Below, in pieces: positions 1,369 through 43,444 of a DNA stretch of 43,444 nt. A program made the translations under genes and the position numbers. The DNA comes from a virus (Duplodnaviria; Heunggongvirae; Uroviricota; Caudoviricetes): IMG/VR virus record IMGVR_UViG_2851966386_000001, positions 1-43,444 of that record. One strand, given 5' to 3'. Every line of letters starts with the position of its first letter. Position 1 is the stretch's first letter. The notes beneath the pieces were generated by a model. That model saw nothing but the letters and a program-made list of their open reading frames with translations, searched no databases and had not been told where the DNA came from.

Positions 1369-1444
1369 GCCGATATAGCTCAGTTGGTAGAGCAGCGCAT
1401 TCGTAATGCGAAGGTCGTAGGTTCGACTCCTATTATCGGCACCA
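1369..1444 (+). tRNA. thrW: tRNA-Thr (anticodon CGT), prophage attachment-site tRNA
   Basis: 76-nt sequence GCCGATATAGCTCAGTTGGTAGAGCAGCGCATTCGTAATGCG...GGCACCA with a cloverleaf-compatible layout, anticodon loop TTCGTAA and a CCA end; an integrase gene follows immediately. Confidence 0.9.
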
Positions 1445-1458
1445 TTAAAATCAATAAG

Positions 1459-4170: not shown

Positions 4171-4995
4171 TCAGGCGGTGAAAGTACCAATAAAGGTTTC
4201 TACTTTGCTGTCCTTGAATTTCTCAACAAGCAGATCACGAAATTCGTTAGCCATTTCTTCCTGCACCGCCTCCAGCTGAATAATGCGCAGAACCAGTACA
4301 GGACGATCGCCAGTGATAATACTGAGGCGTAATTTAAACGGACGTTCTTTCAGACCTTCAAACGGAACGCATTTAAATTCAAATGCCACTGGCATAATGT
4401 CTTTGGTCTTCGCTTCGACAGACTCCATCAGGGAGCGTTTGCCGCTGAAGTCATTATCTTCAAAATCAGCGGTCTGGTTTGCTTCAATCGTGATTTTACG
4501 GACAGCCGCAGCCGCTTTTGTTGCCTGAATAGCGTCACCATTAGCATCAAAGCCCACAAGATAGTCGGCCCAGTCTTCAATCCATTCTGCTAGTGACTTC
4601 TGGGAGTTACGCTCGCCGTTAACAGACAACAGAGCAGAGAACGGTGCTGTCTTTTTCAGTTTGAGTGTGGCGGTGTTATCTGCGTGACCTGGTTCATCAA
4701 TAGTACCTAGGTTAAGCACACTGACGGCACGCATATTATCAGCATCGATAAAGCAGCGGGTGCCTTCATCTGCAAGATCTTTAGAATAACGGGTAAAATC
4801 ATCGATGCTGGCAGTGGAAAGCGTACCACGGAAACGGAAGCGATTTAAATTAAATTTTTCCAGATCATGAATGCGGAAATTCTCAGGCAATGCCACAGCA
4901 TCGGCACCAATCTTACTGATAATTTCATTAACACCCTGAGCAGAAATAAGGGCATGGATTTGATTAATTGCGGTTGCGTCTAAGTTCTGAGACAT
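4171..4995 (-). CDS. DUF2303 family phage protein (YfdQ-like, 274 aa)
   Basis: 274-aa ORF; sequence resembles YfdQ of the CPS-53 prophage as recalled; preserved gene order with the HD-domain and DUF551 genes. Confidence 0.65.
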
Positions 4996-38001: not shown

Positions 38002-41000
38002 ATGGCAGTAAAAATTTCAGGTGTACTGAAAGACGGCACAGGAAAACCGGTACAGAACTGCACAATCCAGCTGAAAGCAAAACGTAACAGTACCACGGTG
38101 GTGGTGAACACGCTGGCATCTGAAAATCCGGATGAAGCCGGGCGTTACAGCATGGACGTTGAGTACGGTCAGTACAGCGTTATTCTGTTGGTGGAAGGAT
38201 TCCCGCCGTCACATGCCGGGACCATCACCGTGTATGAAGATTCCCGACCCGGTACGCTGAATGATTTTCTCGGTGCCATGACGGAGGATGATGCCCGTCC
38301 GGAGGCACTGCGCCGTTTTGAGCTGATGGTGGAAGAGGTGGCGCGTAACGCGTCCGTGGTGGCACAGAACACGGCAGCCGCGAAGAAGTCAGCCAGTGAT
38401 GCCAGCACATCAGCCCGTGAGGCGGCAACCCATGCGACTGATGCTGCAGGCTCAGCACGCGCAGCCAGCACATCAGCCGGGCAGGCCGCGACGTCGGCTC
38501 AGTCAGCGTCTTCCAGCGCAGGAACGGCATCAACAAAGGCCACTGAAGCCTCAAAAAGTGCTGCCGCTGCAGAGTCCTCAAAAAGCGCGGCAGCTACCAG
38601 TGCCGGTGCGGCGAAAACGTCAGAAACGAATGCGGCAGCGTCACAAAAATCTGCAGCCACTTCTGCATCCGCAGCGACCACAAAGGCGTCAGAAGCTGCC
38701 ACCTCAGCCCGGGATGCGGCGGCCTCAAAAGAGGCAGCGAAATCATCAGAAACGAACGCATCATCAAGCGCCAGTAGTGCCGCTTCCTCGGCAACGGCGG
38801 CAGGAAATTCCGCGAAGGCGGCAAAAACGTCCGAGACGAACGCCAGGTCTTCTGAAACGGCAGCGGGACAGAGTGCCTCAGCTGCGGCAGGCTCAAAAAC
38901 AGCGGCTGCATCATCTGCCAGTGCCGCATCAACAAGTGCCGGGCAGGCCTCAGCCAGTGCCACCGCTGCCGGAAAGTCGGCAGAAAGTGCCGCATCGTCT
39001 GCTTCAACAGCCACAACGAAGGCTGGCGAAGCCACTGAACAGGCCAGCGCAGCAGCGAGGTCAGCTTCCGCAGCGAAGACATCCGAAACGAACGCGAAAG
39101 CGTCGGAAACCCGTGCAGAATCCTCAAAAACGGCTGCCGCATCGTCCGCCAGTTCGGCGGCGTCATCGGCATCATCGGCGTCTGCTTCAAAAGATGAGGC
39201 GACCAGACAAGCGTCAGCAGCGAAGGGCAGCGCCACGACGGCATCCACGAAGGCGACAGAGGCAGCTGGCAGTGCGACGGCGGCAGCTCAGAGCAAAAGT
39301 ACGGCGGAATCCGCGGCAACGCGCGCCGAGACAGCAGCAAAACGGGCAGAGGATATTGCATCCGCTGTGGCGCTTGAGGATGCGAGCACGACGAAAAAGG
39401 GGGTAGTACAGCTCAGCAGTGCGACCAACAGCACTTCCGAGTCACAGGCGGCAACGCCAAAAGCCGTTAAGGCCGCGTATGACCTGGCTAACGGGAAATA
39501 CACCGCACAGGACGCTACGACAGCACAAAAAGGAATTGTCCAGCTCAGTAGTGCAACCAACAGCGCATCTGAAACGCTTGCCGCGACACCGAAAGCAGTG
39601 AAAGCAGCTAATGATAATGCGAATGGTCGGGTACCTTCTGCCCGTAAGGTGAATGGTAAGGCGCTTTCAGCGGATATAACACTGACGCCGAAAGATATTG
39701 GTACGCTTAACTCAACAACAATGTCATTCAGCGGTGGTGCTGGTTGGTTCAAATTAGCAACGGTAACCATGCCACAGGCGAGTTCCATCGTTTACATCGC
39801 ATTGATTGGTGGCGCTGGTTACAACGTCGGTTCCCCACATCAGGCAGGCATTTCAGAACTGGTTCTACGAGCAGGCAATGGAAACCCCAAAGGAATTACC
39901 GGGGCTTTGTGGAAGCGTACAGCCGTCGGATTAACGAATTTCGCCTGGATCAACACATCCGGCGATACATATGATATTTACGTTGAGATTGGCAATTATG
40001 CGACGAGTGTAAATATCCATTGGGATTGTACTGCAAATGCGTCAGTTTCTGTTTATACCTCGCCAACATATTCAGCGAGTAAGCCTTCCAGCGTTACCTA
40101 TGGTGTTGTTTATACGATGTATAGCACACATCAGAAACCGACGCCGTTAGATATTGGAGCACTGCCAACAACCGGAGGAACAGTTTCAGGTCCGTTGTCT
40201 GTTACAGGTGGATTAACTGGTTCATTGAATGGTAATGCAAGTACAGCCACGAAATTGCAGACGGCAAGATCTATCGGTGGAGTTGTTTTCGACGGTTCTG
40301 CAAATATTAACCTTCCAGGTGTAAACACTACGGGTAATCAGAACACCACTGGTAATGCTGCAACTGCCACAAAACTACAGACTGCACGGAATATCAACGG
40401 CGTTCCGTTTGACGGCACGAAGGATATTACGCTTACGCCTAAAGATCTGGATGCCTACAGCAAAAGCGAAGTACAGAGCGCACTGGCGGGCAAACAACCG
40501 CTGGACAATACGCTGACTAATTTGAGTGGAAAGGATGTAGCTGGTCTTCTCGCATACCTTGGTTTGGGCGAAACGATAAATAAAGCCTCCGGAGCTATGC
40601 AGAAATCGGCTAATGGAGCTGATATTTCTGATGTATCAGCCTTCCGAAATGCGCTCCAGTTAGGGACCGCCGCAACACGAGATGTTGGAGCAGATAATGC
40701 CTCGAAGTTACTGGGTTTAGACAGCTTCAGGTCAATGATGTCAGGGAATGGCTACATCTACATTCCATGCATTGCGACGACAGGAAACCCGGTGAAACTT
40801 ATGTTGCAGTGGGGAATGGTGGCAACACAAAAGGGAGCTGATGCTGGATATGCCTTACCATTTGCTTTTCCCTATGCAGGCTTATTTGCGACCGGAAACC
40901 GTGGAACATCTGGCTACAATGCCGCGATGAATGTGCGTATTGCCAGCAGAACGCATATCAGTATTCAGAACTGGTCGCCATCCGGAGAGGGCACCGAAGA

Positions 41001-41028
41001 TTGTTGTTTTATCGCGCTGGGGTATTAA
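38002..41028 (+). CDS. stf: Side tail fibre Stf (Ala/Ser/Thr-rich repeat shaft, variable C-terminal domain)
   Basis: The N-terminus MAVKISGVLKDGTGKPVQNCTIQLKAKRNSTTVVVNTLASENPDEAGRYSMDVEYGQYS matches lambda Stf; long low-complexity A/S/T repeat region; C-terminal domain ending ...CCFIALGY. Confidence 0.9.
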   Translation: MAVKISGVLKDGTGKPVQNCTIQLKAKRNSTTVVVNTLASENPDEAGRYSMDVEYGQYSVILLVEGFPPSHAGTITVYEDSRPGTLNDFLGAMTEDDARPEALRRFELMVEEVARNASVVAQNTAAAKKSASDASTSAREAATHATDAAGSARAASTSAGQAATSAQSASSSAGTASTKATEASKSAAAAESSKSAAATSAGAAKTSETNAAASQKSAATSASAATTKASEAATSARDAAASKEAAKSSETNASSSASSAASSATAAGNSAKAAKTSETNARSSETAAGQSASAAAGSKTAAASSASAASTSAGQASASATAAGKSAESAASSASTATTKAGEATEQASAAARSASAAKTSETNAKASETRAESSKTAAASSASSAASSASSASASKDEATRQASAAKGSATTASTKATEAAGSATAAAQSKSTAESAATRAETAAKRAEDIASAVALEDASTTKKGVVQLSSATNSTSESQAATPKAVKAAYDLANGKYTAQDATTAQKGIVQLSSATNSASETLAATPKAVKAANDNANGRVPSARKVNGKALSADITLTPKDIGTLNSTTMSFSGGAGWFKLATVTMPQASSIVYIALIGGAGYNVGSPHQAGISELVLRAGNGNPKGITGALWKRTAVGLTNFAWINTSGDTYDIYVEIGNYATSVNIHWDCTANASVSVYTSPTYSASKPSSVTYGVVYTMYSTHQKPTPLDIGALPTTGGTVSGPLSVTGGLTGSLNGNASTATKLQTARSIGGVVFDGSANINLPGVNTTGNQNTTGNAATATKLQTARNINGVPFDGTKDITLTPKDLDAYSKSEVQSALAGKQPLDNTLTNLSGKDVAGLLAYLGLGETINKASGAMQKSANGADISDVSAFRNALQLGTAATRDVGADNASKLLGLDSFRSMMSGNGYIYIPCIATTGNPVKLMLQWGMVATQKGADAGYALPFAFPYAGLFATGNRGTSGYNAAMNVRIASRTHISIQNWSPSGEGTEDCCFIALGY
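38400..39400. repeat. Degenerate tandem repeats encoding the Stf Ala/Ser/Thr-rich shaft
   Basis: Recurrent units such as AAKTSETNA.SSE / SAAASSASSA at the protein level; GC-rich repeats create spurious ORFs in other frames. Confidence 0.7.
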
Positions 41029-41030
41029 GA

Positions 41031-41441
41031 ATGAATAAATTTTATAAAGGCTCTTTCTATCCGAAAGCACTAAAAGAGGTATATATCAGCGCCGGTTCAT
41101 GGCCTGAAAATGGCGTTGATGTTGATGATGAAACAATGGCAATTTACACAGGCGTAGCGCCACAAGGCAAAACGCTGGGGGCTGATAAAAATGGTAATCC
41201 TGCGTGGATTGATATCCCGCCACTCTCCGCTGAACAACAGATTATTCAGGCTGAACAGAAAAGAACGGTATTGCGTTCTATGGCTGATAAGGAAATAGCC
41301 TGGAGACAGGATGCTTTTGATGCGGAAATCGCGACGGCAGAAGAAACCGCCGCGTTATCTGAATGGAAAAAATACCGGGTCTTGCTGATGCGCGTTGATA
41401 CAGCAAAACCCGTATGGCCTGTCAATCCGCAGGATATTTAA
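41031..41441 (+). CDS. tfa: Tail fibre assembly protein Tfa
   Basis: Start at ATG 41031 (MNKFYKGSFYP...); the C-terminus ...AEIATAEETAALSEWKKYRVLLMRVDTAKPVWP matches the conserved Tfa C-terminal domain. Confidence 0.85.
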   Translation: MNKFYKGSFYPKALKEVYISAGSWPENGVDVDDETMAIYTGVAPQGKTLGADKNGNPAWIDIPPLSAEQQIIQAEQKRTVLRSMADKEIAWRQDAFDAEIATAEETAALSEWKKYRVLLMRVDTAKPVWPVNPQDI

Positions 41442-41655
41442 CGGGGGCGTTGTAGGTGGTGACATATTCAAGCAGTTCTGTTGGATATGTCACCGTTGCT
41501 GCATCTCGCTCTACGTTAAATGTATCCGCTCCCCAGATAACACACTCCCTCAAAAATGCCTCCACCTCTGGCGAGACTTCAACCGCATCATCAGGTCGCT
41601 CTTGTTCAGAAACATAAAAACCAACGGTCGTTGGGCTGAAATACATATTCTCCAT
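41422..41655 (-). CDS. Inverted-orientation tail fibre assembly gene fragment (tfa-prime, 77 aa, N-terminal domain only)
   Basis: N-terminus MENMYFSPTTVGFYVSEQ has the Tfa N-terminal motif; convergent with tfa and overlapping it by 20 nt, as in invertible tail-fibre segments. Confidence 0.5.
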   Translation of the reverse strand: MENMYFSPTTVGFYVSEQERPDDAVEVSPEVEAFLRECVIWGADTFNVERDAATVTYPTELLEYVTTYNAPVKYPAD

Positions 41656-41657
41656 AT

Positions 41658-41893
41658 TTAGTATCCTATTGCTTCAAAATGCAAAGTCGGAATTTCGCCG
41701 AGATTGGGTGTCGTATACGACACAGTGAATCGCGTTCTTGATACGTCAGTGCCAGAATCAGTATCGCGATGCGTTGCCAGTGATTTCCCAGCCATTGATG
41801 ACTGGGTCGAAAAGCTGTAACTCGCTAGTGTTGCCAGCGTTGCTATTTGTGCATTTGGGAATTGTCTGGGGAAATTAACCCTGTAGTAATGGG
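41658..41893 (-). pseudogene. 3-prime part of an alternative tail-fibre variable segment (Sv-prime) cut by the IS insertion
   Basis: Joining 43207-upward to 41893-downward with one GGG copy removed restores a continuous reading frame ending at a TAA 2 nt upstream of tfa-prime. Confidence 0.6.
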
Positions 41894-41935
41894 TGAACCG
41901 CCCCGGGTTTCCTGGAGAGTGTTTTATCTGTGAAC

Positions 41936-42826
41936 TCAGGCTGCCAGATCATCGTTTCCGATGGAAGCATAATAAGCTTTTTCTGCTTCTGCCGGAGGAG
42001 TATGGCCCAGCCTTTCCAGCAATCGTCGATTGTTATACCAGTCCACCCACGTGAGTGTGGCCAGTTCCACTTCTGCACGGTTTTTCCAGCTCTTACGGTG
42101 TATTACCTCCGCTTTGTAAAGACCATTGATGCTCTCCGCCATCGCGTTGTCATACGAGTCGCCTGTACTTCCTGTTGATGCCAGTAATCCGGCTTCCTTA
42201 AGCCGCTGTGTGTAGGCCAGCGATACATACTGAGAACCTTTATCACTGTGATGGACCGTGCCGGACGGTCGACGGGCCCATAACGCCTGCTCCAGTGCAT
42301 CCAGCACGAATGTCGTTTCCATGGACGATGAGACCCGCCACCCCACGATGTATCCGGCAAACACATCAATGATGAACGCCACATAGACGAAGCCCCGCCA
42401 TGTGCTGACGTAAGTAAAATCAGCCACCCACAGCTGGTCAGGTCGTTCTGCCACGAACTGACGGTTTACGCGGTCGCCTGCGGCAACGGCTTTCCGGCTG
42501 ATGGTCGTACGGACCTTTTTACCCCGGAGAACACCGGCAAGTCCCATAACCGCCATGAGACGTGCCACAGTGCATCTGGCCACTCTGATACCTTCCCGTA
42601 ACAACTGACGCCAGACTTTACGCACACCGTATACCTTGTGATTTTCATCGTATACGCGCTGTATCTCTTTCTTCAGCCAGTCATCGCGCTGCGCACGGGC
42701 ACTGCGTTTATCCGGATGATGTCGCTGTTGCTGACAGTGGTAATACGTTGACGGGGCAATATGCAGTTCGCTGCATAGCGGTCCGACCCCGTACTGCTCA
42801 CGCAGCTTATCCAGCAGTGGCATCAT
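41936..42826 (-). CDS. IS3-family transposase OrfB (DDE integrase domain)
   Basis: 296-aa ORF with a DDE-type catalytic region (…DFTYV…HSDKGSQY…DNAMAES…) downstream of orfA. Confidence 0.9.
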
Positions 42827-43149
42827 TTTTTCCAGAGGCGGTCGAACTCCGCCTTCGCAAAATAAGCGGAAGCCTGGCGAAGGATATCGTTACTGCGGCG
42901 CAGTTCACGATTTTCACGTTCCAGCTCTTTCAGACGCTGACGTTCAGCGGTGGTGAGCCCTCCATCACCGCCCCCGGTATCCCGCTCATGCTGGCGAACC
43001 CAGACACGCAGAGTCTCCGGCGTACAGCCAATCTTTGGAGCAATGGAACAAATTGTCGCCCATTGTGAGTCATATTCGCTCTGACTTTCCAGAACCATAC
43101 GGACTGCCCGTTGACGGACTTCGGGGGAAAAACGAGTATTTTTAGTCAT
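42823..43149 (-). CDS. IS3-family transposase OrfA (HTH)
   Basis: 108-aa [56 protein letters not shown]... with a leucine-zipper-like C-terminus; the stop overlaps the orfB start at an A-rich run (TGGAAAAAATGATG). Confidence 0.9.
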
Positions 43150-43203
43150 CCTGTTTACCTCTTTCTCAGGAAGTTTAGTCTCCAGGATTCCCGGGGCGGT
43201 TCA

Positions 43204-43444
43204 GGGTGTAGTACAGCACTCCACCAAGAGTAATTGCGTTGAAATTACCAACAGGCGTCAGTGTCACAGTACCAACCTGTCGAATCATACCATTTGGGAG
43301 AATATCCCAGGCAGTTTGTCCGTTTCGCGACATACCAAATGCGGACATGTCCGGGAGTTGATTATTACCGGTTCCGACATCCCGTTTTGCCGCTTCTCCC
43401 AATTGAACGTTTATGAAAATGCAGAAATAGCGCGCAAATGGCAT
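43204..43444 (-). pseudogene. 5-prime part of the alternative tail-fibre variable segment (Sv-prime), continues beyond the window
   Basis: Translation ...FINVQLGEAAKRDVGTGNNQLPDMSAFGMS... parallels Stf ...FRNALQLGTAATRDVGADNASKLLGLDSFRSM..., i.e. a paralogous receptor-binding domain on the opposite strand. Confidence 0.6.

Follow-up and report, generated by a model that had tools for sequence, protein, structure and literature searches.

An IS629 insertion in the silent arm of an invertible tail-fibre segment with a truncated invertase gene in a lambda-like prophage of Escherichia coli

The tail-fibre genes at the right end of the prophage

The DNA analysed here, referred to as the window, is a stretch of 43,444 nucleotides that corresponds to positions 895594-939037 of the chromosome of E. 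coli EC29 (NZ_CP060867.1) and holds proA, a tRNA-Thr gene and a complete-looking lambda-like prophage that runs from int to stf/tfa. The host belongs to an ST167-like lineage of E. coli, and the prophage, which is integrated at tRNA-Thr, carries an invertible segment at its right end. The prophage extends 5.7 kb beyond the window, where attR is a 48-bp repeat of the 3′ part of the tRNA (L001, 16167-16214). Isolated Lambdavirus phages share 96-97% identity with its late region (16900-39483), a likeness that stops inside stf.

In its current form, the side tail-fibre gene stf (38002-41028, plus strand; PGAP WP_369772194.1) consists of a constant part, Sc, of about 852 codons fused to a tip, Sv, of about 156 codons, and its product has the Pfam domains phage_tail_N, Phage_fiber_2 and Gp53-like_C. 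The gene is followed by tfa (41031-41441, plus strand), which encodes a canonical tail-fibre assembly protein of 136 amino acids that serves Sv (Pfam Caudo_TAP, 2.4e-31; PHROG188, 3.8e-42). Converging on tfa from the minus strand is a 77-amino-acid ORF (41422-41655; WP_001619155.1), called tfa-prime in a first-pass annotation of this DNA, and beyond it are the two fragments of an interrupted reading frame. The distal fragment (41658-41893, minus strand; HYYRVNF...EAIGY and a stop codon) and the proximal fragment of 67 codons (43207-43405, minus strand; QLGEAAKRDVG...GGVLYYT) were both recognized by translation, and together they make up Sv′, which is the silent one of the two arms in an invertible tail-fibre segment of the Pin/Gin type.

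Sv′ does not possess a start codon of its own and is made for fusion to the constant part of stf. No sigma-70-like promoter was found in 40400-43444, where 3.0 would be expected. The rejoined Sv′ matches Gp53-like_C (PF21882) over residues 49-157 with 30.3 bits, above the cutoff of 24.9, and it is this domain that the insertion interrupts. Membership of the Gp53-like_C family and a QLG-AA-RDVG hinge are all that Sv and Sv′ have in common. A search of PDB sequences with Sv′ gave nothing meaningful, and its copies differ at too few positions for an estimate of dN/dS. Sv′ has a putative receptor-binding role.

A complete IS629 element interrupts Sv′

The two fragments of Sv′ are separated by a complete IS629 element (IS3 family) of 1310 bp (41894-43203, minus strand), identified by its terminal inverted repeats, its identity to other copies and the annotation of the copies in relatives as 'IS3-like element IS629 family transposase'. 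The termini are imperfect inverted repeats of the form TG...CA (TGAACCGCCCCGGG..), in which 23 of the 25 outermost nucleotides match. The flanking sequence GGG is present once in the empty site and twice around IS629, as a target-site duplication with a left copy at 41891-41893 and a right copy at 43204-43206. IS629, with its isoforms IS1203 and IS3411, is an IS3-family element known from Shigella and E. coli O157:H7. Its target duplications are 3-4 bp long, and prophages hold 62% of the IS629 copies in O157 genomes (PMC3271280).

Two ORFs assigned by Pfam account for the coding capacity of the element: orfA (42823-43149, minus strand; 108 amino acids, HTH_Tnp_1) and orfB (41936-42826, minus strand; 296 amino acids, HTH_21 and an rve DDE core). 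They overlap at an A6 slippery run that lies inside an ALIL frameshift-stimulating pseudoknot (42752-42868, minus strand), which matches Rfam RF01497 over its full length and scores 120.2 bits, where the gathering score is 50. PGAP treats orfA and orfB as one IS3-family transposase made via a programmed frameshift, and the slippery run and pseudoknot support the predicted fusion transposase, for which the first-pass annotation had pointed to this overlap. Hundreds of copies in E. coli have 99.8-100% identity to the element, which is presumably active. In length, repeats, duplication, A6 run and ALIL pseudoknot, rve domain and preference for prophages it is like the IS629 reference. There is no structural difference from known IS629, and what is particular to this copy is its target, the silent arm of a fibre cassette, and its host, an ST167-like NDM-5 lineage.

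The restored reading frame and its empty sites

In-silico removal of IS629 and one copy of GGG leaves a single open frame of 157 codons on the minus strand, which reads ...AITLGGVLYYT/HYYRVNFPRQF...LHFEAIGY and a stop when translated across the junction, while the remaining two minus-strand frames contain many stops. The stop codon of Sv′ (41658-41660) is separated by 2 nt from the ATG of the 77-amino-acid ORF (41655-41653). Computational re-derivation thus bore out the first-pass claims that a 1310-bp IS with a GGG duplication occupies 41894-43203, that its excision joins two minus-strand fragments in one frame with no internal stop, and that this frame ends 2 nt before the start of tfa-prime.

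The reconstructed empty site occurs with 100% identity over 843 nt in at least 20 complete E. coli genomes, mostly ST167/NDM isolates, which shows that the rejoined frame is not due to chance. Agreement with the IS-free reconstruction extends over 4232 consecutive bases in isolate NDM6, and uninterrupted homologues are also found in P1-like and P2-like phages. The IS629-bearing allele was found in 7 (and, in rearranged form, 3 more) of 5426 genomes, and isolates from several countries are among its carriers; the IS-free allele is the commoner of the two. The flanks of the insertion carry zero substitutions. This, together with the small number of carriers, indicates a recent insertion, as the first-pass annotation had suggested.

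Crossover sites and the invertible segment

Sv′ is part of an invertible segment of 2845 bp (40561-43405), which shrinks to 1532 bp when the IS and one GGG are removed and whose inversion reproduces natural genomes. The left 26-bp crossover site, TTCTCGCATACC-TT-GGTTTGGGCGAA (40547-40572, plus strand), lies inside stf at the boundary of Sc and Sv, and the right site, TTCTCCCAATTG-AA-CGTTTATGAAAA (43394-43419, plus strand), is inverted with respect to it and has the same TT/AA core. The sites were located by the flanking inverted repeat of an intact copy in a P2-like element, which the left site matches. The left site also resembles the repeat of the e14 P segment, TTGGTTTGGGAGAAGG (PMC12529663), from which its right half hardly differs. 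A degenerate look-alike within Sv (around 40650-40680, encoding QLGTAATRDVG) was considered as the left site and rejected in favour of 40547-40572. An ATG at position 43444 is a spurious start, in a frame that passes through the right crossover site.

In-silico exchange at the core creates the in-frame fusion ...GKDVAGLLAYL/QLGEAAKRDVGTGNN...EAIGY and a stop, in which the tip begins with QLGEAAKRDVG, and this fusion identifies the split ORF as Sv′, the silent alternative tip of the fibre. The two sites agree at 17 of 26 positions. Positions adjoining the core differ between them, so the exchange can be confined to the TT dinucleotide, and serine invertases characteristically exchange strands at a 2-bp core. 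In-silico flips agree with natural genomes at every base. Six genomes contain the predicted flipped junction with 100% identity, about 15 more contain it with 99.7% identity, and P1-like plasmids with about 98% identity (at least 98%).

Members of the Din family of invertible fibre segments include the G segment of Mu (gin), the C segment of P1 (cin), the P segment of e14 (pinE) and Min of p15B. As in those segments, two inverted 26-bp sites with a common 2-bp core are present here, the constant fibre part joins alternative tips in frame, pairs of tip and chaperone genes converge, and an invertase gene adjoins one site. The segment differs from the family in lacking a functional adjacent serine invertase, in place of which there is a stump of 122 bp, and in that the protein encoded in one arm has 77 amino acids and is not a Caudo_TAP Tfa. 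The carrier is also different, being here a Lambdavirus-like siphovirus, whereas near-identical cassettes reside in P1-like and P2-like elements. Both IS629 and the Din-type fibre segment are thus of known kinds, and no new mechanism is involved.

The same module is found in a P1-like plasmid (H8 plasmid A) and a P2-like prophage (EC590), where a 136-amino-acid Tfa is followed by the converging 77-amino-acid ORF and a 158-amino-acid 'gp53-like' ORF, and then by the invertase gene. In these elements, Sv′ and the 77-amino-acid ORF are intact, as are the invertases of 189-190 amino acids that adjoin the cassette (L004, L005). Escherichia phage phi458 (OP434518), a lambdoid phage that forms plaques, has the same cassette with Sc::Sv′ and the 77-amino-acid ORF in the expressed orientation; its invertase remnant (279 bp as annotated) is longer than the stump in EC29.

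Four allelic states and natural inversion

The presence or absence of IS629 and the two orientations of the segment define four states, each of which exists in nature. NDM6 (L003) is IS-free and unflipped; of the 4287 bases compared, the first 4232 are identical to the reconstruction, after which comes an IS903B insertion. Isolate 32-4 (L007) is IS-free and flipped, and agrees with the in-silico reconstruction at 4287 of 4287 bases. WCHEC005784 (L009) is IS-bearing and flipped (5600 of 5600 bases identical to the reconstruction), and 41EC2 (L010) is IS-bearing and unflipped, with the arrangement seen in the window. All four states share one invertase stump with zero substitutions, and the stump and downstream DNA of 32-4, WCHEC005784 and 41EC2 are identical (255 of 255 bases). 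Because base-identical relatives display all four states, inversion has gone on after both the loss of the invertase and the insertion of IS629. The stump is common to all states, and the IS always has the same position and a single duplication; these sequences are most economically explained by one truncation and one IS insertion, followed by at least two inversions.

The orientation states were read from single consensus assemblies. Since such assemblies are the only source for each state and inverted repeats can mislead assemblers, the differences in orientation could in principle be artefacts of assembly, or products of RecA recombination between the inverted repeats. Repeats of 26 bp that match at 17 of 26 positions are, however, too short to serve RecA, for which reason recombination of that kind is unlikely, and not long enough to mislead assembly from long reads. 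The exchange is, moreover, pinned to the 2-bp TT core, in keeping with a serine invertase, and each orientation is found in many independent assemblies. An explanation by artefact or RecA is therefore scarcely credible, and the action of a site-specific invertase is the preferred account of the four states.

Loss of the resident invertase and presumed inversion in trans

Past the right crossover site, a spacer (43420-43444) leads to the end of the window, and the serine-invertase gene begins 30 nt past that end (MLIGYVRVSTNDQNTDLQRNALNCAGCE...; spacer and stump at L001, 10446-10596). What is left of this gene is a 122-bp stump that is frameshifted by a 1-nt deletion at nt 88; homology ends after about nt 121, where a DUF262 gene and other cargo take over. 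With the cognate cis invertase reduced to a dead stump, switching would rely on an invertase supplied in trans, and presumably a related enzyme from another element catalyses inversion here.

There are precedents for a segment being flipped by the invertase of another element. PinQ of the Qin prophage inverts the P segment of e14 (PMC12529663), and Fin of Fels-2 is described as acting on Salmonella hix sites (Kutsukake 2006 as cited in PMC4272514). The e14 and Salmonella systems still have a cis invertase, whereas at the EC29 segment it is absent and action in trans would be obligatory.

Din-type systems also depend on a Fis-dependent recombinational enhancer, which lies about 100 bp from one site, in the 5′ end of the invertase gene. 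In the hin system, the enhancer measures 65 bp and is separated from hix by about 100 bp (PMC3798978). In EC29, 189 bp are kept beyond the right core, enough to include the position reported for the hin enhancer, and by analogy with that distance an equivalent of the enhancer is probably retained in the stump.

A trans-acting invertase was sought in EC29 and its relatives but was not located. The sites of e14 (icd), Rac (ttcA-uspF) and Qin (ydfJ-rspB) in EC29, as located by synteny, are all empty. In the plasmid DNA inspected, comprising the first 50 kb of the 147-kb pEC29-NDM-5 and the whole of pNDM5_005784, no Din invertase was found and the recombinases present were of the resolvase type. 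Counts of blastn places obtained with chimeric queries gave 2 extra invertase-like places each in the chromosomes of EC29, 32-4 and WCHEC005784 and 0 in WCHEC025985, but these counts are ambiguous, as no coordinates accompany them and DinI/UmuC-like sequence had entered the first query.

These results bear on whether the cassette was still a working switch when IS629 arrived. IS629 might have made a neutral hit on a dead relic, in which the arm with Sv′ and the 77-amino-acid ORF became extinct once the invertase was lost and the frame is intact only because it has not yet had time to decay. Such a reading would accommodate the frameshifted and truncated stump, the lack of a resident invertase at the e14, Rac and Qin sites or on the inspected plasmid DNA, and the general preference of IS629 for prophages. 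It does not fit well with the finding of an identical stump beside flipped and unflipped segments, IS-bearing and IS-free alike, at zero substitutions, which implies that the switch worked after the truncation. The preservation of Sv′ and the 77-amino-acid ORF beside intact invertases in P1-like and P2-like elements, and their expressed orientation in the plaque-forming phi458, also speak against extinction of the arm, and a dead relic is on balance improbable. The better explanation, to which we assign a probability of about 0.85, is that IS629 struck Sv′ as the silent arm of a Din-type segment whose cis invertase is dead and which is flipped in trans.

Consequences for the tail fibre

According to this explanation, the segment's own invertase would have been truncated first, a complete IS629 would have transposed into Sv′ with a 3-bp GGG duplication, and inversion would have gone on later with a related invertase acting in trans. 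The invertase would exchange strands at the 2-bp core of the two inverted 26-bp sites, as in the G segment of Mu, the C segment of P1 and the P segment of e14, and would join Sc to one of two tips, Sv with tfa behind it or Sv′ with the 77-amino-acid ORF behind it. In the orientation of the window, Sc-Sv and Tfa are expressed and IS629 is phenotypically silent. After a flip, stf reads through 67 codons of Sv′ and then 9 codons of the IS (LNRPGNPGD) to a stop, and the WCHEC005784 assembly displays this flipped state with stf cut short by IS629. Because the flipped stf is truncated by the element, a switch between two tips is now one between fibre-on and fibre-off. The first-pass annotation had proposed that the insertion inactivated an alternative host-range determinant. 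This stands insofar as Sv′ is split and the fibre is cut short after a flip, but it overstates the present effect, of which there is none, as the arm is unexpressed in this orientation. Side fibres of the lambda type are dispensable, and the phenotypic cost of the truncated state may therefore be nil.

It has also to be considered whether the insertion was selected, in that the host or the IS might gain from crippling one phase, for instance by avoiding a costly or receptor-blocking Stf chimera or by tuning a StfE2-like defence of the kind associated with e14. Inverted e14 stf chimeras block adsorption of T2 (PMC12529663), the silent arm of the phi458 cassette has likewise received an IS, which is an independent IS1 insertion and lies in Sv rather than Sv′, and the IS629-bearing allele is spread over isolates of several countries. 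The prophage bias of IS629 and the clonal spread of ST167 account for this distribution, however, and the IS-free allele is commoner; selection for the insertion is very unlikely.

Taken as an insertion into the silent arm of a trans-flipped segment, the IS629 event itself is routine genome decay. The four-allele series with zero substitutions has a wider meaning, as a natural demonstration that a host-range segment may continue to switch after loss of its cis invertase. Annotation pipelines should not dismiss such segments, or the flipped Sc::Sv′ fusion, as pseudogenes, and the host range of prophages in epidemic ST167/NDM-5 lineages may hinge on the recombinases of other mobile elements.

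The 77-amino-acid partner of Sv′

The 77-amino-acid ORF lies directly 3′ of the Sv′ tip, and this order is kept in phage phi458 as well as in the P1-like and P2-like elements. Its sequence is identical in the P1-like plasmid, and it belongs to a family of proteins of 77-80 amino acids, related down to 59% identity, in Escherichia, Citrobacter, Enterobacter and Phytobacter. Pfam finds no domain in it, Caudo_TAP (PF02413) included, BLAST detects no similarity to the neighbouring Tfa, and its match to PHROG188 is limited to residues 1-31. The possibility that the ORF is a truncated Tfa was rejected, since the family keeps its length of about 77 amino acids down to 59% identity. The AlphaFold2 model is a compact alpha/beta structure with a pLDDT of 92. 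A fold search with this model against the PDB gave no match and a search of PDB sequences with the protein nothing meaningful, while in BFVD the model weakly matches a 60-amino-acid 'tail fiber assembly protein' of Pantoea phage LIMEzero (E = 0.03, probability 0.95).

On the basis of these comparisons, the most fitting description of the protein is a candidate chaperone that is short and non-canonical, neither a paralogue of Tfa nor a truncated pseudogene, and its family can be flagged as conserved candidate short fibre chaperones. The first-pass view that the inverted cassette is paralogous to stf/tfa consequently needs qualification: the alternative fibre tip is real, but tfa-prime is without Caudo_TAP, and the kinship of the two tips goes no further than the Gp53-like_C family. 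A more far-reaching proposal, which we regard as doubtful though possible, is that the locus is an orphan switch run by any visiting Din invertase, that Sv′ is served by a previously undescribed, minimal chaperone of 77 amino acids without the C-domain of Tfa, and that IS629 made this switch fibre-on/fibre-off. Where tfa and the 77-amino-acid ORF converge, there is a strong predicted hairpin (41437-41520; -39.7 kcal/mol, z = -6.7), whose 14-nt arms are conserved in the P1-like plasmid and the P2-like prophage (L004, L005).

Insertion sequences and a group II intron in stf cassettes

A second lambdoid prophage on the EC29 chromosome (L011 36460-40039, about 1.916-1.920 Mb) also carries an IS629 inside its stf gene, and this copy is broken after nucleotide 515 of the IS by a 2270-bp group II intron (ltrA). 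The IS629 copy of the window itself recurs in strain CREC8 (L002 6881-10473) with the same left junction, and there it holds a group II intron that is identical to that of the second EC29 prophage and lies at the identical position. The right flank of the CREC8 copy is foreign, so this copy no longer adjoins the proximal part of Sv', the right crossover site or the invertase stump. H9 and H10, two canine isolates, show the same. In these three strains it looks as if the intron first homed into the IS629 copy and an IS-mediated rearrangement then destroyed the switch. In the plaque-forming phage phi458 (OP434518), an IS1 (L016 6822-7519) lies within Sv, the silent arm of the same cassette, and is an independent IS hit on an unexpressed arm.

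Sequence features of the invertible segment and stf

The flipped Sc::Sv' fusions of strains 32-4 (L007 2676-5000) and WCHEC005784 (L009 7641-9965) are called by PGAP as pseudogenes 'missing C-terminus', despite a reading frame that is open to EAIGY* in both. PGAP also assigns spurious ATG starts to silent arms, reading through the crossover site; these starts and the pseudogene calls are an annotation artefact of invertible segments. Within Sv, a second QLGTAATRDVG motif (window 40650-40690) follows the true crossover site at a distance of 31 codons, and its DNA is weakly similar to the right crossover site; the motif may be the relic of an older fusion point. Central stf (38400-39350) is a long, low-complexity, Ala/Ser/Thr-rich stretch, and as a result several reading frames on both strands hold long ORFs that are spurious.

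The exact point of convergence of tfa and the 77-aa ORF, in the middle of the invertible segment, is occupied by a very stable hairpin (41437-41520; -39.7 kcal/mol, z = -6.7), whose 14-nt arms are kept in the P1-like and P2-like copies of the cassette. This hairpin may act as a bidirectional terminator or as an RNA-stability element. The 77-aa ORF (41422-41655) is a member of a conserved family that has no annotation and in which 21 residues are invariant. Its AF2 fold is confident, a search of the PDB with the model returned no fold match, and the protein is a candidate minimal tail-fibre chaperone.

The right end of the prophage and the invertase remnants

The prophage extends a further 5.7 kb beyond the end of the window to attR (L001 16167-16214), a 48-bp repeat of the 3' part of tRNA-Thr (window 1399-1446); a second integrase and an hsd island follow in tandem. 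The 5.7-kb portion includes a DUF262 gene, DinI and UmuC-like remnants, ParA and, 30 nt beyond the window end, a frameshifted invertase stump of 122 bp (L001 10475-10596). In contrast, the truncated invertase of strain 5CRE51, from the same prophage family, is 288 bp long with no frameshift (L008 6835-7122), and after it comes rnlA/rnlB, a toxin-antitoxin pair. Cargo seems to be swapped at the 3' end of the invertase gene.
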